DNA from: Pirellula staleyi DSM 6068
GTDB lineage: Bacteria > Planctomycetota > Planctomycetia > Pirellulales > Pirellulaceae
DNA length: 32,000 bases
Assembly: GCA_000025185.1 (NCBI GenBank)
Contig: CP001848.1
Coordinates: 1,260,001-1,292,000 of the forward strand
Direction of reading: 5' to 3'
The notes under the pieces: model-generated
What the model saw: only the letters and a program-made list of their open reading frames with translations
Database searches by the model: none
What the model was told of the DNA's origin: nothing
Shown here: positions 1,627-22,750 of the stretch, piece by piece
Position numbering within the stretch: the stretch's first letter is position 1
How the letters are laid out: the number at the start of each line of letters is the position of its first letter
Made by a program: the position numbers and the translations under genes

Positions 1627-1745
1627 TCGACTACGGCTCGAGCTTTGCCGTGTGGCACTGGACTTTGCTGGGTGGCTACTAACTGGCTTGTCCAGCAGTG
1701 AGAAACGCCGCCTGGATCGATGGAGGTCGACTACGGCTCGAGCTT
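1627..1745. repeat. exact 19-bp direct repeats flanking an 81-bp segment that holds a disrupted copy of the hairpin repeat
   Basis: TCGACTACGGCTCGAGCTT occurs at 1627-1645 and 1727-1745 (19/19). Between them, GTGGCACTG (1652-1660) and CTGGCTTGTCCAGCAGTG (1683-1700) are the two halves of the family core (minus orientation), split by 22 nt. The right repeat contains the stop codon of the minus-strand gene 1731..2636. Confidence 0.7.
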
Positions 1746-2823: not shown

Positions 2824-2930
2824 CTGTCAGGTACGCACGTAACTGACGCAACTTCGTCGAGCGATCCATGTCAGACTGTAAGGATCAGGCTGCAATCCAG
2901 TGTGCCACTGGGCTCTGCCCAGTGAGCACT
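2824..2930 (+). repeat. diverged copy of the composite repeat unit seen at 9841-9944
   Basis: Same order of parts as at 9841-9944. TGTCAGGT..CTGAC matches CGTCAGGT..CCTGAC. The arm CTTCGTCGAGCGATCCATGTCAG matches GTTCGTTGAGCAATCAATGTCAG. A related hairpin CACTGGG-CTCTG-CCCAGTG lies at 2906-2924. Confidence 0.4.
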
Positions 2931-3033
2931 GAAATTGGGCTCTATGTTTTAAGCCGATTTCGCCCAAAACATCGCCTTCTAACTTCTGCACCGGCAAGAT
3001 ACCGGTGGCACACAAATCAATGCCAGGAAAAAC

Positions 3034-3108
3034 GGGGTGGCACTGCTGGCTTGTCCAGCAGTGTGAGTCGTAGCTAAGGGATGACATTAACCGATAGACG
3101 AAGCACTA
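3034..3108 (-). mobile_element. REP/MITE-like element copy (arm plus perfect hairpin core), minus orientation
   Basis: The reverse complement reads TAGTGCTTCGTCTATCGGTTAATGTCATCCCTTAGCTACGACTCACACTGCTGGACAAGCCAGCAGTGCCACCCC. It differs from 9624-9696 at about 6 positions including one indel. The hairpin stems are 3041-3049 and 3055-3063. The first 3 nt (TAG) are the stop codon of the 3106..4209 gene. Confidence 0.75.
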
Positions 3109-5235: not shown

Positions 5236-6102
5236 TTACTGAGCTGCTTTTTCGCCGGGCGAAACAGTTTCGGTCTTCGGCGAGCTGCTGCCAGCGGCCT
5301 TCGCCCGATCGGTCGCTTCCTTGGTGATTGCCAAAGCAGCTTCGAGTTCGCCAGGGGTGAAGTAAGGATCGACGGTGCCGTTGATGTGCTTGGCGCCGAT
5401 CTTCTGTTCGAGCTCGCCCCACGACAGGCCATTGGCCAGGTGCCAGGCAGCTGCTTGAGCAGGCTTCTGAGGAATCTCGCCACGGCCAAGCATCTTCACC
5501 ATTTCGATCACTTCGGGATTGCTCACGACGCTATCGAGGGGACGAATGTCGTAGGCAACGCGTGGGTTGGGGTCCTTCTTACCGTGCTCGAGGCAAACCG
5601 CCACGATCGGGAGCTTTTGAACCTTTTCGGGTCCGACGTTGAAGAAGCCACCGCCACCACCCTGGCCGCCGAAGCCGCCACCACCTTGACCACCAAAGCC
5701 ACCGCCACCCTGGCCGCCGAAGCCGCCACCGAAACCTTGGTTCTGACCACCACCAAGGCCACCCTGACCACCGCCAAAGCCACCTTGGCCGCCGATTCCA
5801 CCACCACCAAAGCCACCGAGCTGAGCATTCACGGGGACACCCGCAAAGGCATCAGGAAGCTTGATCGACAGGGGCTTCTTCGTATTGTTCTTGATCGTCA
5901 CCGTGCCGGTGGTCGAATCTTTAGGAATCAATTTCACTTCGATATCGCCACGCTTAATGGCTTCGAACATCTCCACTTCTTCGGAGTCCGCTGCTTTGGC
6001 CTTGGTTTCGGCCAGCACGAGCGAGCTTCCAGCCAAGCTAAACGCCAGGCCCAGACTGAGGAGCGAAACCCACGAAAACAGCCGCGAGGTTGTAACACTC
6101 AT
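5236..6102 (-). CDS. secreted hypothetical protein with a central 59-aa Gly/Phe/Gln low-complexity tract
   Basis: ATG 6102 gives MSVTTSRLFSWVSLLSLGLAFSLAGSSLVLA (signal peptide). The flanking ordered parts look conserved (KLPDAFAGVPV...; VAVCLEHGKKDPNP...AQAAAWHLANGLSWGEL). The 6120 start is a TTG. Confidence 0.7.
   Translation of the reverse strand: MSVTTSRLFSWVSLLSLGLAFSLAGSSLVLAETKAKAADSEEVEMFEAIKRGDIEVKLIPKDSTTGTVTIKNNTKKPLSIKLPDAFAGVPVNAQLGGFGGGGIGGQGGFGGGQGGLGGGQNQGFGGGFGGQGGGGFGGQGGGGFGGQGGGGGFFNVGPEKVQKLPIVAVCLEHGKKDPNPRVAYDIRPLDSVVSNPEVIEMVKMLGRGEIPQKPAQAAAWHLANGLSWGELEQKIGAKHINGTVDPYFTPGELEAALAITKEATDRAKAAGSSSPKTETVSPGEKAAQ
5641..5817 (-). repeat. coding low-complexity tandem repeat (GGFGGQ-type)
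   Basis: Encodes GGFGGGGIGGQGGFGGGQGGLGGGQNQGFGGGFGGQGGGGFGGQGGGGFGGQGGGGGFF. At the DNA level, CCGCCACC(AC)CCTGGCCGCCGAAGCCGCCACC recurs at 5651-5683 and 5702-5730. Confidence 0.85.
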
Positions 6103-7064: not shown

Positions 7065-8090
7065 ATGTGCTACGCACAAAAACGCGAGGGTCGCAGGAGC
7101 GCTGCTCTTCGGCCAAATAGCCGCTTGGCTTTCACCCTGGTAGAACTTTTGGTGGTCATCGCCATCATCGGAGTGCTTGTGGCACTCTTGCTACCAGCTG
7201 TGCAAGCTGCTCGCGAAGCGGCTCGTCGTATGAGTTGTTCGAACAATCTGAAGCAGGTCACGCTCTCGCTACATAACTTTGAAAGCAGTTACGGAATTCT
7301 TCCCGCCGGCGAATTCAAAAATCCTTCCACCGGCACGCTGACCTACCTCTCGCCCCACGCTCTCTTGTCGAACTATTTCGAACAAGGAGCCTACTTCTCG
7401 AAGCTCGACTTGAATGTCGGCCCGTTCACACAACCCAATTACGACGCTACCCGCTTACAACCTAAAACCCTGCTCTGCCCCAGCGATCCACATCCGGGCA
7501 AGAACATGGACATGGGATGGACCAACTATCACGTTAATGCTGGCTCTTGGGTTCAAGCTACCCAAAACTGGGATGGTTCGTTTGGTCCTCATAATGATTA
7601 TGCAGGTGGTAAGCGGACCGGTGAGCTCGCTTTCTCGGCCATCACCGATGGTTTGAGTAACACAGCCGCCTTTGCGGAAGTGGTGAATGGTGCTGGTGAT
7701 TCGGGAGCACCCAAGACCCGCTTTGATTGTTATGAGTTTGGTGCTTCCCCCACGGGAACGATGGCGCAAATGCGGACCGCCTTGGCCGCCAAAGACTGGA
7801 AGACCGCCACGATTCCTTGGAGTGGTGGCTGGCGTTATCGCGGCTATCCATGGTCGGAAGGTTCGATGTGGCGCTCATGGTACAACCACCTCACGCCACC
7901 CAACAGCGTTTGCTGGCTCCCCGATGGCGACTTCTACAAAATCATCTCCCCCGCATCGAGCTACCACCCGGGTGGAGCGATGGTGTCGATGTGCGATGGT
8001 AGCGTCCGTTTCGTCAGCGAAACGGTGAACGGCGACATCTGGACCGCCGCTGGCACGCGCAACGGTGGCGAATCGATCGCGCTCCCTTAG
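7065..8090 (+). CDS. DUF1559 / H-X9-DG prepilin-type N-terminal cleavage-methylation domain protein (paralog 1)
   Basis: 341 aa from ATG 7065, with GGGGAGA about 10 nt upstream. The N-terminus [37 protein letters not shown] is a type IV pilin-like signal. The C-terminal [17 protein letters not shown] is the H-X9-DG motif. Confidence 0.88.
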   Translation: MCYAQKREGRRSAALRPNSRLAFTLVELLVVIAIIGVLVALLLPAVQAAREAARRMSCSNNLKQVTLSLHNFESSYGILPAGEFKNPSTGTLTYLSPHALLSNYFEQGAYFSKLDLNVGPFTQPNYDATRLQPKTLLCPSDPHPGKNMDMGWTNYHVNAGSWVQATQNWDGSFGPHNDYAGGKRTGELAFSAITDGLSNTAAFAEVVNGAGDSGAPKTRFDCYEFGASPTGTMAQMRTALAAKDWKTATIPWSGGWRYRGYPWSEGSMWRSWYNHLTPPNSVCWLPDGDFYKIISPASSYHPGGAMVSMCDGSVRFVSETVNGDIWTAAGTRNGGESIALP

Positions 8091-8319: not shown

Positions 8320-9339
8320 ATGAATGCTGCCATCTATCCCATCTCGGGTCGTCGCCGCGCTCTTGCGATCGATCAGCGCCGCGCTTTCACACTCGTCGAG
8401 CTGCTGGTGGTGATCGCGATTATCGGGGTGCTTGTCGCCCTGCTTTTGCCCGCCGTTCAAGCGGCCCGCGAAGCAGCCCGGCGAATGAGTTGTGCGAACA
8501 ATCTCAAACAACTCACGTTGGCGATGCATAACTTCGAAAGCAGTCATGGCTCGCTCCCCGGTGGGGAGCATGAAGCGTTCTCGGGCGCGAATGCCTATTT
8601 TTCACCCCATGCCATGATGTCGCAGTTTTATGAGCAAGGGAACTTTTATAGTAAGCTGAATTTGAATCTCAGCCCTTATGATGCGGTGAACTATAATGCA
8701 GCGATGCTGCAACCGAAAACCTTAATATGTCCGAGCGATCCGCGCCCTGGAAAGAATGAACCTTTAGGATGGACCAATTATCATTGTAATAGTGGTGGCT
8801 GGGTTGTCACGAATCAATGGGATGGTGTGTTTGGTCCCATGGCCGATGTAGGAGGTGGCAAGAAGACAGGTCCACTCCGTTTTGCAGATGTCACCGACGG
8901 ACTAAGTAACACCAGTGCCTTCGCGGAAGTGGTGAATGGGGCTGCTTCGTCGGGCTCGAAGCCAAGCCGCTTTGATTGTTATGAGTTCGGGGCAAGTCCC
9001 ACCGGAACTGCGACCGCGATTCGGACCGCTTTCGCCACCAAAGATTGGAAAACATCGACGATTCCTTGGAGCGGCAGCTGGCGCTATCGCGGCTATCCCT
9101 GGACCGAAGGGACGCATTGGCGAAGCTGGTACAACCACGTCATGCCACCCAACAGCGTCTGCTGGCTCCCCGATGGAGACTTCTGGAAACTCGTCAGCCC
9201 GTCGTCGAGCTATCACCCTGCCGGTGTGAACGCCAGCATGTGCGATGGGAGCGTGCGGTTTGTTGCCGATTCGATCAACGGCGACGTTTGGACCGCCACT
9301 GGCACCCGCAACGGGAAAGAAGCACTCGCGCTTCCCTAG
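8320..9339 (+). CDS. DUF1559 / H-X9-DG prepilin-type N-terminal cleavage-methylation domain protein (paralog 2)
   Basis: ATG 8320 has GGGGGAG 10 nt upstream (alternative GTG 8314). It has the same N-terminal 36 aa as paralog 1 and the H-X9-DG motif [17 protein letters not shown]. By eye it is roughly 70% identical to paralog 1. Confidence 0.88.
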
Positions 9340-9458: not shown

Positions 9459-9626
9459 ATGATTCGCAACTGGTTTACTTGTTCGTTGCTTGCCACCGCC
9501 CTGCTGTCGGTGATGATGAGTGGCTGTGGCTCAGAAACAGTCACCAAGACCGAGGATCCTGCCACAATCGAGCAGAAGCGCCAGGAACATCAGCAGATGT
9601 CGCAGCGCGAACGGATGGGCCCCTAG
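9459..9626 (+). CDS. putative small lipoprotein (55 aa); below the 60-aa cutoff of the ORF track
   Basis: My translation is MIRNWFTCSLLATALLSVMMSGCGSETVTKTEDPATIEQKRQEHQQMSQRERMGP*. It has a basic n-region, a hydrophobic core and an MSGC lipobox-like site. GAGGAA lies 8 nt upstream of the ATG. The TAG stop is at 9624-9626. Confidence 0.45.
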   Translation: MIRNWFTCSLLATALLSVMMSGCGSETVTKTEDPATIEQKRQEHQQMSQRERMGP

Positions 9627-9732
9627 TGTTTCGTCTATCGGTTAATGTCATCCTCAGCTGCGATTCACACTGCTGGACAAGCCAGCAGTGCCACCCAGAG
9701 ACACATGACATTGATCGATAGACTTACTACTA
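9624..9732 (+). mobile_element. MITE-like element: 28-bp imperfect terminal inverted repeats around the perfect hairpin core
   Basis: The left arm 9624-9651 is TAGTGTTTCGTCTATCGGTTAATGTCAT. The reverse complement of the right arm 9705-9732 is TAGTAGTAAGTCTATCGATCAATGTCAT (22/28 match). The core CACTGCTGG-ACAAG-CCAGCAGTG is at 9668-9690, followed by CCACCC. Confidence 0.7.
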
Positions 9733-9804
9733 GTCTGTCGATCGCTAACCATCGCTGGTTCTATGCCCCGGTTGGATTGCCGCTGGGGTCGGATCGCGAG
9801 GCTT

Positions 9805-9873
9805 CGAAACCATAAGGTGCACAGCGCTGGCGAAGTCCTCGTCCGTCAGGTTCCCCACGGACACCTGACCTAC
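9805..9873 (+). repeat. 69-bp direct repeat, copy A
   Basis: CGAAACCATAAGGTGCACAGCGCTGGCGAAGTCCTCGTCCGTCAGGTTCCCCACGGACACCTGACCTAC matches copy B at 65/69. It contains GTCAGGT-(11 nt)-ACCTGAC, which can form a hairpin. Confidence 0.85.
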
Positions 9874-9944
9874 TAGTTCGTTGAGCAATCAATGTCAGCG
9901 TAATTCGAGTCTCACACTGCTGGACAAGCCAGCAGTGCCGCCCC
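9874..9944 (+). repeat. REP/MITE-like element copy (arm variant plus perfect hairpin core)
   Basis: The arm TAGTTCGTTGAGCAATCAATGTCAG starts at 9874. The perfect core CACTGCTGGACAAGCCAGCAGTG is at 9915-9937, followed by CCGCCCC. Confidence 0.7.
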
Positions 9945-9946
9945 AA

Positions 9947-10015
9947 CGAAACCATAACGTGCACACTGCTGGCGAAGTCCTTGTCCGTCAGGTTCCCCAC
10001 GGACACCTGACCTAC
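9947..10015 (+). repeat. 69-bp direct repeat, copy B (142 bp downstream of copy A)
   Basis: There are 4 mismatches to copy A over 69 nt. It is followed at 10016-10044 by an inverted, truncated arm-like end that overlaps the stop of the 10042..11595 gene. Confidence 0.85.
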
Positions 10016-10041
10016 AGGGCGGTCGAGCAATCGACGAAGTG

Positions 10042-11595
10042 CTACTTCTCGGAAGTGGTGCGAAGTTTCAGCACGGCCAAAATCGGCAGATGGTCGGAAG
10101 CGATCGGTTCTTCGAGGACCTTCACTTCCACCACTTCCCACGCATCATCGGGGCGGCAGAGAACGAAATCGATTTGCCGCTCTGGTTTATCGGTGGGGAT
10201 GGTTGGCGTTTCGGTTTCGCCGGCGATTTTCCAGTGAGCGCCGAGTTTCTTCAGCGTCTCGGTCTCGCGTGTGGCGTTGAGATCGCCCCCCAAAATCGTA
10301 GCGACGGTTTGCTCTTTTACGAGCTTTTCGGTGAGCCACGCAACACTCGCCAAACGCTCGTCTTCTTTACCGCGATAGTCGAAATGCGTGGCGGCGACGC
10401 GTAAGGTTGGCGCGCGTCCTGGGAGGCTGATCTCGGCCACGAGTACACCGCGCTGCTCGCCACCGTCGAGTGACGGAAGCAGATGATTATCGTGACGCTC
10501 GATCTTATAGCGCGACAAAATCGCGTTCCCATAACCGCCCCCTTGGAGCGCCAGGTTGCTCCCAAAACAGAACTCCATCTTGGTGAGTTCGGCGAGCACT
10601 TTCGGCTGATCGACTTTGCCACTCCGCGCGACGTTCTGGTCCACTTCCTGCAGCAGCACGAGGTCGGGATTTACCGAGGTGATGATCTTGGCGAGTCGTG
10701 GTAGATCGAGTTTGCGGTCGTTCCCTTCGCCGTGATGAATGTTGTACGAAAGGACGCGCAGCGTGATTGGCGCGACCGCCTGGCTCGGGAGTTTTGCGAC
10801 GATAATCTTACGCTCTTTGCGGCTGATTCCGAGCAGATTTCCATCCACCGGGTCGATGGCGATCCCTTGTCCAGTGAAGGGGCAGCCCAGGATTTCGACC
10901 AGCTTCAGCTCGTCTCCTGCGGCCGGGATCGCGAGGCTGAAGAGGACCCCGTCGTCGTGCCCAGTCACAAACAGCCGATCGCCGATGAAGAGCCCGCCGG
11001 AAACGCTCATGCTTCCCAGGTGGCTGATCATGGCGGCGGGATAGCGATAGCGTCGAAGCTCGGTCCAGTCGTCGTTGTAGGTGACGAGAAAGGTCTCGTG
11101 GTTGGCTTTGCCATACTTGGCGAAATTGCACCACCACTGGCCGGCGTGACGCACGACCCAGGTGAGGCTGCCACCAGCGTCCCCCAGGTCGCGCAGTGTC
11201 GAGAGTTCCATCGTCGCGGGATCGAGCGCTTTGATCTCGCTTTTCTCGGGCATCAGCGGATAGTTGCTGTGGGCCAGCAGCAGTTTGCCTTCATGAAAAA
11301 AGCCGCTGTTCAGATGCATCGCTTCACCACTGCTGGTGGCGACTCGCTCGGCCGTTTTGCGATCGTATTTCCCGACGCTGCTGCTGGTGATGGCGTAGTA
11401 GAACTTGTCGTCGGCGGCCACTGCTTGGTGCGCTTCGGCGGCCGCAATTTCGGCGATTTTCGGGCAGTTTTGCGTGGTTTTGGGGGGCTCGGCAGCAGCG
11501 CGCGAGACCAGCAGGCTGCTGGCCGAAAGACCAACGAGGAGTGCCAGCGCAAAGGTGGTCCAGCGATCGTCACAGCGGCGCGCGGCAAAGAACAT
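10042..11595 (-). CDS. secreted two-domain protein: unknown N-terminal domain plus C-terminal endonuclease/exonuclease/phosphatase (EEP) domain
   Basis: ATG 11595 gives MFFAARRCDDRWTTFALALLVGLSASSLLVSRAAA (signal-like). The C-terminal half (LRVLSYNIHHG...DLVLLQEVD...GNAILSRY...ATHFDY...GGDLNA...SDHLPILAVL) carries the EEP catalytic motifs. Confidence 0.8.
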   Translation of the reverse strand: MFFAARRCDDRWTTFALALLVGLSASSLLVSRAAAEPPKTTQNCPKIAEIAAAEAHQAVAADDKFYYAITSSSVGKYDRKTAERVATSSGEAMHLNSGFFHEGKLLLAHSNYPLMPEKSEIKALDPATMELSTLRDLGDAGGSLTWVVRHAGQWWCNFAKYGKANHETFLVTYNDDWTELRRYRYPAAMISHLGSMSVSGGLFIGDRLFVTGHDDGVLFSLAIPAAGDELKLVEILGCPFTGQGIAIDPVDGNLLGISRKERKIIVAKLPSQAVAPITLRVLSYNIHHGEGNDRKLDLPRLAKIITSVNPDLVLLQEVDQNVARSGKVDQPKVLAELTKMEFCFGSNLALQGGGYGNAILSRYKIERHDNHLLPSLDGGEQRGVLVAEISLPGRAPTLRVAATHFDYRGKEDERLASVAWLTEKLVKEQTVATILGGDLNATRETETLKKLGAHWKIAGETETPTIPTDKPERQIDFVLCRPDDAWEVVEVKVLEEPIASDHLPILAVLKLRTTSEK

Positions 11596-12085: not shown

Positions 12086-12200
12086 ATGGGTGGTTCTGCT
12101 CGGCATAGCTCGACACAGTTTTAGCCTCTTCAAGCTGCTCACTGCTGGACAAGCCAGCAGTGCCACCCCATTTTGAAGGACATGGGTGACTCTGCTCGGC
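12086..12200. repeat. 19-bp direct repeats (17/19) flanking a 77-bp segment with a perfect hairpin core
   Basis: ATGGGTGGTTCTGCTCGGC is at 12086-12104 and ATGGGTGACTCTGCTCGGC at 12182-12200. The core CACTGCTGGACAAGCCAGCAGTG at 12140-12162 is followed by CCACCCC. Confidence 0.7.
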
Positions 12201-12266
12201 GGAGTTCAGCACAAAGAGGCGTCGTGCGCTTGCGGTTCGGCAGTTTGGAGCCTGCCCTACGTTCGA

Positions 12267-19876: not shown

Positions 19877-21154
19877 TTGGCTGCGGACGACCGGCCTGGC
19901 CCCTGCTCGACGAGCCCTCGCTGGCTCGCAGCGACAGCGGCCTCTGGTGGATTGCGAGTGACTAGTCGCGTGGTGACGAGTGTTTTCACGGTTCCGCCCA
20001 CTGAGCTTCTCGGCTCACCAGCGACACGCCCCGCGTGGATCGCCGGCAGCGAGAACGCGCTCGTGCAGATTGCGGCCGAAGTGGTTCTGCAGCACGATGA
20101 TCGTCGGCGCTGGATGAACCCGCTCGTTTTTTGCGGCAGCAGCGGCGCTGGTAAAACCTCGCTCGTGCAAATCCTGGCCGATGAAAAACGTCGCCTCGCC
20201 CCCAAGTCGAATGTGCTGCACGAAGTTGCCACCGATTTCGCACGCAGCTATGCCCACGCCGTCGACACCGACTCGATCGCCGACTTCCGCGCCAAACATA
20301 CCCGCTGCGATCTGCTGGTGCTCGACGACCTGCATCGACTCGCCGGTAAAGCAGCTGCACAGCAAGAGCTGATCGCCGTCATCGATGCGATGATTCGCCG
20401 CGGCGCACTGGTGCTCCTCACCCTTAAAAACCTTCCGGCAGCAACGCGCGGTTTGCTTCCGATGCTCGCCAGCCGCATCAGTCAGGGCCTCACGCTTTCG
20501 CTCGCACTTCCGGGGGTCGAAGCCCGCGATGCTTTGCTGCGTGTGATTGCAGCGCAGCAAGGTTTGCTCCTCCCCGAGGAATTAGCCGAACAACTTGCCA
20601 TGGCGATTGCGGCCCGCCCCGCCGGTTCGCTAAGCGCCACGCAGCTGCGCCATTTCGTGATTGAACTAGCGCGCTGGTTTGCCGATCAGCCTGCCTCGCG
20701 CGCTGCCGAAGTCGATGTCGAAACTCCTCGCGCACCTCGGGGACGTCCTGCCAAACTTCCCCCGCTGGAAGCTGCGAGCAATCCGCCTGCCGCAACATCC
20801 GCCGCCGATTTCATCGCGCAGCTCCTCTCGCTTCGCACCGCCGATCTCAAAACCACACTGCGGCAAGTGACGCAGCTGGTCGCGCGGCACTATCAACTTT
20901 CGCCAGCCGATTTGCGTGGCCAATCGCGTCAGCAAAGTTTGGTGCAAGGTCGCAGCCTCGCCATGTTCATCGCGCGTTCGCTCACCGAGGCAAGCTTTGC
21001 CGATGTCGGTAAGTTTTTTGGTAATCGCGATCACACCACCGTGCTTCACGCCTGCCGCAAGATCCAATCGCAGCTCGAAAAAGATGTGACCCTCAAGTCA
21101 CTCGTCGACGAGATCTCGGTCGCTTGTCTCGCTAGTGAAACGAGGCACGCATGA
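19877..21154 (+). CDS. dnaA: chromosomal replication initiator DnaA (short N-terminus)
   Basis: Walker A is GSSGAGKTS, Walker B is LLVLDDLH, and box VII is LASRISQGLTLSL. Domain IV reads RGQSRQQSLVQGRSLAMFIARSLTEASFADVGKFFGNRDHTTVLHACRKI. An in-frame TAG at 19859-19861 caps the N-terminus. The start is TTG 19877 or an internal GTG. Confidence 0.85.
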   Translation: MAADDRPGPCSTSPRWLAATAASGGLRVTSRVVTSVFTVPPTELLGSPATRPAWIAGSENALVQIAAEVVLQHDDRRRWMNPLVFCGSSGAGKTSLVQILADEKRRLAPKSNVLHEVATDFARSYAHAVDTDSIADFRAKHTRCDLLVLDDLHRLAGKAAAQQELIAVIDAMIRRGALVLLTLKNLPAATRGLLPMLASRISQGLTLSLALPGVEARDALLRVIAAQQGLLLPEELAEQLAMAIAARPAGSLSATQLRHFVIELARWFADQPASRAAEVDVETPRAPRGRPAKLPPLEAASNPPAATSAADFIAQLLSLRTADLKTTLRQVTQLVARHYQLSPADLRGQSRQQSLVQGRSLAMFIARSLTEASFADVGKFFGNRDHTTVLHACRKIQSQLEKDVTLKSLVDEISVACLASETRHA

Positions 21155-21631
21155 GCACCGCTGCTCTGAAGAATCGATCGCGTCGAGTTTGCCTGACGCA
21201 CAGCTTCGGCCGCTCAGCCAAACTGCGCGATCTAGCAAAACCATGCACGAAACCAGCGTTTTTCGCTTCCGTGAAGCTCGAGCAACTAGCCAGCTTACAA
21301 GCTCGCGTGGATAACTCGTCGCAGAATGTCGCTAGCCTCTCGAGCTACCGACAGCTAGCGACACTCCCCTCGGCGAGCCACTTGTCGCTCTCCCCATTTC
21401 GACAGGCTAGCGCCACGCTAGCGACTCCTCGGCGACGAGTTATCAACGGCCAAAAACTCCCTTGCCAGCGATCGCAAGTCTCGAGCACTCTTCGCACTTC
21501 GCGATTGTCGCTCGCAGCTATCGACAACCACAGCCTTCGCATTCCTACTACTACTGAATTTTCTTTTACTTACTAAGACAGCAGAGAGCAAAGCAGATTT
21601 GCACTCGCGACATTGAAAAGGTTCTGCCCCG
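21155..21631. promoter_or_regulatory. dnaA-dnaN spacer; candidate oriC or part of it
   Basis: 478 bp with no convincing gene. It has cGTGGATAA at 21306-21314 (8/9 to the E. coli-type DnaA box) and TTATCAACg at 21440-21448 (7/9). GCTAGC occurs four times (21331, 21354, 21406, 21417). A stretch of roughly 60% A+T lies at 21541-21600. Confidence 0.4.
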
Positions 21632-22750
21632 ATGAAGATCGTTTGCCAGCGAGACAAGTTGGTCTCCGCATTTCAGACAGCTGCGATGTTTGCACCAGCT
21701 CGAAGCCCTAAGGCAATCTTGCAGAATGTGCGCCTGGACGTGACTAACGAAGGTTGCACGATGATGGCGACCGATATGGATATGGGGGTGCGTGTCAATT
21801 TGGAGGGGGTGGAAGTGGAGTCGACCGGAACCGCGCTCCTTCCCGTGCTTCACTTTGGGGCAATCCTCCGCGAGTCGAGCGATGCCACGCTGAAGATCGA
21901 AACCACCAGCCGGGGCACCATGGTCCGTGGCGACCGGAGCGAGTTTCGCTTGCAGAGCGAAGATCCCGAAGAGTTTCCGATTGTCGCTCTCTTCGAAGAG
22001 ACCAAGTACCACAACATTTCGGCTGCACTGCTGAAGCAAGTAATCACGCGCACCGAGTTCGCCACCGACATGGAGAGCAGCCGCTACGCCCTGGGGGGTG
22101 TGCTCATCGAACTGCACGGCGACAAGTTGATTGCCGTCGGGACCGATGGTCGCCGCCTGGCGAAGATGGAAGGCCCTGCAGAGGCTGTCAACGGTCACAC
22201 CACCGGCGACAACACCACCATCATTCGCACCCCCTCGATGCGCCTCTTTGGCCGCGCGATCAGCGAAAACGATAACACCGTGCAACTCGCCGCACGTAGT
22301 AGCGACGTTCTCCTCAAGACCGAACGAGCCACGTTCTACTCGCGGCTGGTCGAAGGACGCTTTCCACGCTGGCGCGACGTCTTCCCACGACGTCAGGATG
22401 CCATCAAGATCGATCTCACGGTCGGCCCCTTCTTCTCGGTGCTGCGGCAAGCTGCCGTGGTGACGAGCCAAGATAGCCGCGGTATCGACTTCACCTTTGC
22501 CGACGGAACTCTCACCCTCTCGGCGGTCACCAGCGACGCCGGTCAATCGCGTGTCGAGATGCCGATCAGCTACACCGGCTCGGCCATCACCGTCACGCTC
22601 GATCATCGCTTTGTGGCCGACTTCCTGAAGGTCCTTTCTCCCGAGCAAACGATTGTGCTCGAGATCGAAAGTGCCGAATCAGCAGCGGTCTTCACAGCCG
22701 ACGACAGCGCTTATGGCTATGTCGTGATGCCCCTGTCGCGTGATCGCTAG
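21632..22750 (+). CDS. dnaN: DNA polymerase III beta sliding clamp
   Basis: 372 aa. The N-terminus reads MKIVCQRDKLVSAFQTAAMFAPARSPKAILQNVRLD.....MMATDMDMGV. It has the three-domain length and sits directly after dnaA. Confidence 0.92.
   Translation: MKIVCQRDKLVSAFQTAAMFAPARSPKAILQNVRLDVTNEGCTMMATDMDMGVRVNLEGVEVESTGTALLPVLHFGAILRESSDATLKIETTSRGTMVRGDRSEFRLQSEDPEEFPIVALFEETKYHNISAALLKQVITRTEFATDMESSRYALGGVLIELHGDKLIAVGTDGRRLAKMEGPAEAVNGHTTGDNTTIIRTPSMRLFGRAISENDNTVQLAARSSDVLLKTERATFYSRLVEGRFPRWRDVFPRRQDAIKIDLTVGPFFSVLRQAAVVTSQDSRGIDFTFADGTLTLSAVTSDAGQSRVEMPISYTGSAITVTLDHRFVADFLKVLSPEQTIVLEIESAESAAVFTADDSAYGYVVMPLSRDR

Follow-up and report, generated by a model that had tools for sequence, protein, structure and literature searches.

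Introduction

The closest described relatives of the element treated here are repetitive extragenic palindromes (REPs) and the REP-associated tyrosine transposases (RAYTs) beside which they are found. The spread of REPs is still poorly understood (PMC8266576). In this report, we describe a 107-bp segment of Pirellula staleyi DSM 6068 that carries a single REP between inverted arms, is bounded by CTAG, and is precisely present or absent among close strains. It lies in a 32,000-nucleotide stretch of assembly GCA_000025185.1 (contig CP001848.1, positions 1,260,001 to 1,292,000), hereafter “the window”, within which all positions are numbered. We conclude that the segment is probably a non-autonomous mobile element, with the REP as its functional core and a RAYT acting in trans as its putative mover.

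REPs of this type are already catalogued. Table S1 of Quentin et al. 2018 lists GGTGC-CACTGCTGG-CTTGT-CCAGCAGTG, and a variant with a CTTGC loop, as the REPs of ADY58460.1, a RAYT gene of subclass 2.2 in the genome coded PbraA01; acidobacterial entries of the table share the GG(G)TGC foot (PMC6006769). The window REP matches these in sequence, in its perfect 9-bp stem and 5-nt loop, and in the adjacency of such REPs to RAYT genes in two related loci (L110 and L111, below), but differs in one base of the foot, which is GGGTGG rather than GGGTGC. We take PbraA01 to be Planctomyces/Rubinisphaera brasiliensis. The table presents bare REPs beside one gene, without the arms, CTAG ends, insertion polymorphism or phylum-wide spread reported here.

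The E. coli REPs and bacterial interspersed mosaic elements (BIMEs), with their transposase TnpA_REP (Protein Data Bank entry 4ER8; Corneloup et al. 2021, PMC8266576), have in common with the window copies an extragenic hairpin, an unpaired 5' foot and an arrangement in clusters of both orientations, which occupy 2897-3066 and 9624-10044. The window element may also share the CT cleavage dinucleotide, and its conserved loop bases recall the perfect-palindrome group 3 REPs. Its foot, however, is GGGTGS rather than GTAG, and its stem has no bulge. Further, it is near-invariant across a phylum, whereas the REPs of E. coli and Pseudomonas are lineage-specific. The REPINs of Pseudomonas fluorescens (Bertels and Rainey 2011, as cited in PMC3733652) are likewise non-autonomous, REP-built single hairpins of about 100 bp, for which a single-copy RAYT is the presumed mover. 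The ends of the REPIN stem are REPs, whereas in the elements described here the tip is where one or two REPs lie, unrelated CTAG-ended inverted arms form the base, and the window copy has a single REP. The TIR repeats, TIRtrons and REP fusions of Di Nocera et al. 2013 (PMC3733652) also have long inverted repeats associated with Y1 transposases, or REPs fused to unrelated stem-loops in hundreds of copies. In TIRtrons the inverted repeats bracket the transposase gene itself, whereas the RAYT-bracketing REPs in our data have no CTAG arms. The Correia element of Neisseria, one of the miniature elements with TA/CTAG targets, resembles the window element in being an intergenic segment of about 100-150 bp with terminal inverted repeats that start from TAGTG, a TA-containing target duplication and no identified transposase. 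It is not known to have a REP hairpin or a link to RAYTs, and its likeness in sequence amounts to a few terminal bases.

Results

Filled and empty alleles among close strains

An open reading frame (ORF) at 9459-9626 encodes a lipoprotein-like product of 55 residues, and its stop codon, TAG at 9624-9626, lies inside the CTAG that begins the segment (Table 1). The exact 55-residue protein was found on eight other contigs, one from NCBI assembly GCA_002483025.1 (L121) and the others from Logan assemblies; the window and L121 are 98.2-98.4% identical over 20 kb, or about 98.3% overall. Seven of these contigs (L121, L122, L123, L124, L126, L127 and L128) have an empty site that reads ...CCCCTAGTCTGTC (in the alignment, ...GGGCCCCTAGTCTGTCGATCG...). 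The other two of the nine sequences, the window and L125, are filled: they hold 107 extra bases with CTAGT at each end (9623-9627 and 9730-9734 in the window) and an unchanged stop codon. The intergenic region of the window is 415 nt long, against 308 nt in L121.

These alleles record a precise insertion or excision at CTAG. One copy of CTAG(T) stands at the empty site and one at each end of the filled site. This may be a true duplication or the result of insertion beside a required target, and the sequence fits either. Any position within the duplicated CTAGT could be the junction; the bounds in Table 1 assume a cut after CT (CT^AG). A preliminary description of this DNA had called the segment a non-autonomous mobile element and had proposed a search for presence/absence polymorphism at orthologous sites. 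The exact empty site in seven strains supports that view, as do CTAG-ended relatives at three sites of one other assembly (below).

The empty site in the window species also starts with CTAGTCTGTC, which resembles the start of the arm; it seems that later copies insert where earlier ones end, as BIME-like clusters do. The REP copies at 3041 and 12140 are kept in every strain sampled.

The filled and empty contigs also show where assemblies stop. Three independent assemblies end (contigs L123, L126 and L127) inside the REP equivalent to window positions 9915-9940, and L125 breaks inside the 107-bp element itself. These repeats fragment short-read assemblies.

Anatomy of the element

The element is small, has terminal inverted repeats and lacks coding capacity. 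Its 28-nt arms are complementary at 22 positions; a repeat search extended them to 29 nt each (9623-9651 and 9705-9733, 79% complementary) and recovered the perfect 9-bp stem between them. The hairpin, CACTGCTGG-ACAAG-CCAGCAGTG, occupies 9668-9690 and is followed by CCACCC at 9691-9696; read on the opposite strand, the foot GGGTGG comes first and the hairpin after it. A 110-nt segment folds as DNA into paired arms with a central hairpin at -22.7 kcal/mol (z -5.1) and as RNA at -47.3 kcal/mol (z -6.9), energies equalled by 0 of 200 shuffles in either case. Arms, hairpin and tail are thus as the preliminary description had them. Its length of 109 bp is not, since the net insertion is 107 bp and is bounded by CTAGT.

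A covariance model (CM) of the REP found no second unit between 9623 and 9733, and the element therefore lacks the two inverted REPs that make up the stem of a REPIN. Across the whole window, the comparison with Rfam that had been proposed yielded no family at gathering thresholds; a search of 9550-10100 at E <= 10 gave hits no better than chance (E > 2).

Table 1. REP- and arm-related features of the window (CM, score against the covariance model of the REP)
Feature	Position	Strand	Remarks
Left CTAG	9623..9626	+	Target or junction sequence; single CTAGT here in the empty-site allele
Insertion, 107 bp, missing from related strains	9625..9731	+	Clean 107-bp alignment gap
Left arm of terminal inverted repeat, TAGTGTTTCGTCTATCGGTTAATGTCAT	9624..9651	+	Recurs at 3081-3108(-), 27/28 identity
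REP unit: 9-bp stem, ACAAG loop, CCACCC tail	9668..9696	+	CM 48.5 bits, E 2.9e-9
Right arm, left arm inverted, 22/28 complementary	9705..9732	+	
Right CTAG	9730..9733	+	
Second arm + spacer + REP module	3035..3108	-	Begins at TAG stop of DUF6807 gene; in all sampled strains
Short-stem REP variant, tail-to-tail with 3041 copy	2986..3016	+	CM 20.7 bits, E 0.006
REP-like variant CACTGGG-CAGAG-CCCAGTG-GCACAC, weak match	2897..2927	-	CM 13.5 bits, E 0.25
Third arm-like + REP module, CTAGTTCGTTGAGCAATCAATGTCA ... REP ... CCGCCC	9869..9943	+	Inside 142-bp polymorphic unit; 75% similar
Fourth exact REP, without arms	12140..12168	+	32-nt direct repeats either side
Decayed REP with two small insertions, intergenic	1667..1703	-	CM 15 bits, E 0.11
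Arm-like TAGCACTTCGTCGATTGCTCGACC, starts at TAG stop of Exo_endo_phos gene; decayed REP next, within repeat B	10020..10044	-	Sequence reading only

The core is a REP found beside RAYT genes

By sequence, the hairpin core belongs to a catalogued REP type. The preliminary description knew of no formal account of it, and a full-text search of the literature for the core sequence gave no match; it is nonetheless present in Table S1 of PMC6006769, the only place where we found it, and the consensus of the family defined below is the exact reverse complement of the REPs listed there for ADY58460.1.

A link to RAYT genes is seen in related genomes. Locus L110 encodes a 199-residue protein with HVH and Y...NP motifs that matches Pfam Y1_Tnp (24.1 bits, cutoff 23) and the NCBIfam model REP_Tyr_transpos (E 1.8e-21; its 76.6 bits fall just short of a cutoff of 80). 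A reverse REP (GGGTGC followed by the hairpin) lies 24 nt before its ATG, and a forward hairpin with CCACCC lies 14 nt past its stop. L111, from an AT-rich planctomycete, encodes a RAYT that shares only 51-53% identity with the L110 protein, and the same REP lies on either side of it, at distances of 22 nt and 13 nt. The sole relative in the Protein Data Bank is 4ER8, E. coli TnpA_REP. Both are intact REPtrons, that is, RAYT genes bracketed by their REPs, and RAYT remnants stand beside REPs in L053, L063 and L086. Class 3 Y1 proteins, which in Planctomycetes go with a CnGA foot (PMC6006769), were considered and set aside, because the foot and hairpin seen here are different and REP_Tyr_transpos is the model that the flanking protein matches.

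Metagenomes scanned with the L110 and L111 RAYTs as queries gave 80 loci, in which the REP was sought up to 200 nt upstream on the opposite strand and up to 250 nt downstream on the same strand. It was present upstream in 28/72, downstream in 28/56 and on both sides in 19/50, at modal distances of 24-25 nt upstream and 15-19 nt downstream. Most RAYTs with the REP shared about 58% identity or more with the queries, and those further removed had weaker matches to the model at the same positions, which suggests that enzyme and repeat have diverged together. Thus, the resemblance to REPs put forward in the preliminary description holds, and its search for a RAYT flanked by the hairpin succeeds in L110, L111 and metagenomic loci but not in the window or about 40 kb available for its species; mobilization by such an enzyme is the part of that proposal that stays putative.

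A 29-nt unit conserved across Planctomycetota

Species-representative genomes scanned with CACTGCTGGNNNNNCCAGCAGTGCC, a pattern that selects for the commonest stem, gave at least 120 loci from at least about 71 assemblies (counted by accession prefix). From 198 oriented units at these loci we derived the 29-nt consensus CACTGCTGG-RCRAG-CCAGCAGTG-SCACCC. Conservation begins at the stem and ends sharply past the tail, with nothing conserved beyond. What is repeated and conserved is the 29-nt REP and not the 109-bp element of the preliminary description. The SCACCC tail (the GGGTGS foot of the other strand) is 83-99% conserved at each position, most often as GCACCC (134 units) or CCACCC (33). The loop is ACAAG in 109 units, GCAAG in 57, ACGAG in 17, GCGAG in 10 and ACCAG in 6. 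The window copies have GGGTGG and hence GTGG, which fits the canonical foot GT[AG]G; most of the family has GTGC, a non-canonical foot that is also found in Table S1.

Second copies at a locus use other, complementary stems, always with the same loop and tail, for example CACGGTTGG/CCAACCGTG, CACGGGTGG/CCACCCGTG, CACTGGCTG/CAGCCAGTG and CCCCGATAG/CTATCGGGG. Among 61 distinct units, both sides of the stem have changed at 6 of the 9 pairs (52 cells); 98% of cells are paired, a figure that follows by construction from the pairing that the scanner required. A covarying stem with fixed loop and tail is the signature of a hairpin recognized by its shape, its loop and the flanking single strand. We calculate that hairpin, loop and tail together would be expected by chance about 0.03 times in the 1.75 Mb scanned. 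One match to the scan pattern, in a Bacteroidales assembly (L041), has neither the loop nor the tail and was set aside as a chance hairpin.

Nearly all of the matches listed are from Planctomycetota (Pirellulales, Thermoguttaceae, Planctomycetaceae, Lacipirellulaceae, Isosphaeraceae and Phycisphaeraceae), and a few are from Desulfobacterota, in assemblies labeled Desulfomonilaceae, Thermodesulfobacteriota or “delta proteobacterium”. The family is thus not confined to Pirellulales. In eight Desulfobacterota-labeled loci (L011, L084, L088, L095, L101, L104, L112 and L120), some on megabase contigs, the REP has the correct loop and tail, which suggests either transfer of the REP-RAYT pair beyond Planctomycetota or mislabeled bins.

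Armed relatives with CTAG ends

In other genomes, CTAG occurs 21-30 nt past the tail in 22 of 189 units against 1.15 expected, an enrichment of about 20-fold. A complete element of 124 bp reads CTAG-TGGTCTGTCCA...GGGTGC-REP-spacer-REP-GCACCC...TGGACAGACCA-CTAG. One assembly has such 124-bp REP doublets, with perfect 15-bp terminal inverted repeats, CTAGTGGTCTGTCCA, at three separate sites (L014, L056 and L097), and similar CTAG-ended elements are present in L058, L064 and L040; two inverted REPs are seen in L014, L056, L058 and L064. At 2439-2681 of L014, two such elements lie end to end, with one CTAG common to both. The termini of the left one are the same, but in place of REP hairpins it has a “double-foot” palindrome, GGGGTGGCAG-TTCAA-CTGCCACCCC. 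In these distant genomes a REP, a REP doublet or the double-foot derivative is consistently inside while the arm sequences drift, although the loci were chosen through the REP.

The idea that the armed element derives from the REPtron, with the latter as its autonomous parent, was rejected: there is no enrichment of CTAG beside the REPs that bracket RAYT genes. Since those REPs have no CTAG arms, the armed element is not simply a REPtron that has lost its RAYT.

Other copies and repeats in the window

The exact 23-mer core occurs four times in the window, at 3041-3063(-), 9668(+), 9915(+) and 12140(+), and in 0 of 100 shuffles; the three additional sites are those reported in the preliminary description. 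That account would have given up the mobile element had the core been confined to this window or had other copies shown neither conserved inverted arms nor insertion polymorphism. The core proves to be widespread, and the left arm recurs, whereas the right arm of the 107-bp element does not recur at the other window copies. What is repeated is a module of about 74 nt made of left arm, spacer and hairpin, with copies at 3108-3035(-) and, more loosely (75%), at 9869-9943. The covariance model scores the four exact copies as strong units and three variant or decayed copies (Table 1) as weaker ones, and all of these are intergenic by the gene calls on the related contig L121; the one at 12140 is antisense to FUR.

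All three arms in the window (3/3) begin at TAG stop codons. A preference of this kind was sought elsewhere and dismissed: in other genomes, a frame of 80 codons or more stops at the terminal TAG in 9/30 cases against 22% for other CTAGs, which is not significant. An exact look-up of the DUF6807 protein with two candidate starts returned no record.

Several copies lie among further repeats. At 9805-9946 and 9947-10032, a tandem unit of 142 bp combines a 68-nt repeat (“B”) with a segment resembling an arm and with the REP at 9915; repeat B itself contains a decayed REP interrupted by 7 nt. The unit is polymorphic, with exactly 142 bp missing in L122 and L128 (intergenic length 166 nt) and present in L121 (308 nt), and recombination between the 68-nt B repeats is the likely cause. 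The 32-nt direct repeats around the REP at 12140 (12086-12117 and 12182-12213; about 75% identical, 96 nt apart) start with ATGGGTGG and ATGGGTGA and look like decayed REPs in reverse orientation. A perfect 19-nt direct repeat, AAGCTCGAGCCGTAGTCGA as read on the minus strand, occurs at 1627-1645 and 1727-1745, 100 nt apart, around the decayed REP in that region.

Three features of the wider window may be recorded. Upstream of the small lipoprotein ORF are two adjacent DUF1559/N-methyl (prepilin-like) paralogs whose DNA is 72-76% identical (7604-8017 against 8853-9266). A GC-rich repeat with a 24-nt period (CCACCNCC/GCCGCC-type) at 5630-5830 lies in a gene called on the minus strand in L121, without a Pfam match, that probably encodes a Gly-rich repeat protein. 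The ORFs at 19877-21154 and 21632-22750 correspond to dnaA and dnaN of L129; with these two genes at about 19877-22750, the window adjoins a probable replication origin.

Discussion

How the element may have moved

We propose that the element entered a CTAG overlapping the TAG stop of the small lipoprotein gene; the stop was preserved. In single-stranded DNA the arms could pair, which would place the REP at the tip and bring the two CTAGs face to face at the base. A RAYT supplied in trans would bind hairpin, loop and foot, cut after the CT of each CTAG, release AG...CT and reseal CT to AG. The RAYTs studied so far cleave at CT dinucleotides on either side of the REP (PMC8266576), and a junction placed after CT makes both cuts CT^AG. 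Any effect of the element on the stability of the 3' end of the mRNA would be a by-product. That a RAYT is the enzyme that mobilizes the armed element is, by our estimate, only slightly more probable than that it is not, the rest being shared among a DDE transposase, precise deletion and mechanisms of other kinds; the conserved REP core, set against drifting arms, favors a RAYT. That such elements form an undescribed class of RAYT-mobilized miniature inverted-repeat transposable element (MITE), in which the REP is the handle and the arms juxtapose two CT^AG sites, with precise targeting of CTAG often over TAG stops, is a more tentative idea, and we lean somewhat against it.

Several facts weigh against mobilization by a RAYT. 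Terminal inverted repeats with a duplicated CTAG or TA are the classical signature of DDE transposases and not of HUH enzymes, and to our knowledge RAYT-catalyzed insertion has been demonstrated for no REP. The published guide rule has a GTGG or GTGC foot predict cleavage at CC or GC, not CT. A tblastn search found no RAYT in the window or in about 40 kb available for its species, and a scan of JGI metagenomes with the arm TTCGTCTATCGGTTAATGTC gave 0 matches. In the window, the full 107-bp unit is single-copy. Finally, the REPs that bracket RAYT genes show neither the arms nor the CTAG enrichment of the armed form.

Some of these facts suit another enzyme. The segment could be a MITE of the classical kind, mobilized by a DDE transposase that recognizes the terminal inverted repeats, either IS630/Tc1-like with duplication of TA or IS5-like with duplication of CTAG, the REP being a passenger or a relic. 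IS630 elements are known to target CTAG. The terminal inverted repeats, the CTAG(T) that stands on both sides of the filled element and only once where the site is empty, the perfect 15-bp termini of the relatives and the abutting L014 element with the same termini around a different core would all be expected, as would REPs without CTAG arms beside RAYT genes. Against this, in about 1 Mb of loci we found no long element with such termini and a transposase gene, nor any CTAG-terminated inverted-repeat pairs 0.06-4 kb apart beyond the short elements; this is weak evidence. Further, CTAG stands at a fixed distance from the REP, and an interior consistently derived from REPs between drifting arms is unexpected if only the ends mattered, albeit at loci selected through the REP. 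We regard this explanation as improbable, though it deserves to be kept in mind.

The same alleles might instead descend from an ancestral, immobile element, the “empty” ones being slippage deletions between the two CTAGT repeats. A 5-nt direct repeat does flank the segment, and recombination between 68-nt repeats best explains the neighboring 142-bp indel. Such a deletion, however, would need endpoints that match those of a 28-bp inverted repeat exactly, the site is empty in seven of nine contigs, and CTAG-ended relatives occupy several unrelated sites in other genomes; precise loss at the ends of an element is also how transposase-mediated excision would look. We think this very unlikely. 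Still harder to credit is a locally duplicated host regulatory hairpin, whether a terminator, an mRNA stabilizer, a small RNA or a protein-binding site. The element stands directly 3' of a stop codon and has a very stable RNA fold, and REPs are known to influence mRNA stability and termination (PMC6006769). Yet there is no T-tract and no Rfam family, the candidate of an intrinsic terminator was dropped for want of a match, orientation to neighboring genes is inconsistent (the 12140 copy being antisense), and the gene functions without the element in seven strains. Further, the motif is spread over a phylum and brackets transposase genes. A primary function for the host is thus unlikely, and a non-autonomous element built on a REP and possibly served by a RAYT accounts for the locus best.

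Significance

The architecture is modestly unusual. In the two papers that deal with REPs of planctomycetes we found no description of the spread of this REP over Planctomycetota into Desulfobacterota, of armed elements that are bounded by CTAG and have the REP at their tip rather than, as in REPINs, at the stem ends, or of junction-resolved polymorphism at this site. Natural REP insertions with resolved junctions are scarce, and here strains about 98% identical provide a clean filled/empty pair with a defined CTAG target and defined ends. The involvement of a RAYT and the position of the cut can thus be reduced to a simple oligonucleotide experiment. For annotation, the 29-nt motif accounts for many contig breaks and intergenic hairpins in Planctomycetota assemblies.

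That one REP stays almost constant throughout a phylum, even as identity among the RAYTs beside it falls to about 50%, bears on whether such pairs are inherited vertically or repeatedly transferred. If the element is indeed a RAYT-mobilized MITE, its alleles would belong to a small number of natural records of REP transposition in which the junctions are resolved. A near-invariant REP accompanied by RAYTs about 50% identical, from Planctomycetota to Desulfobacterota, would then represent an unusually ancient, or often transferred, partnership between a REP and its transposase.

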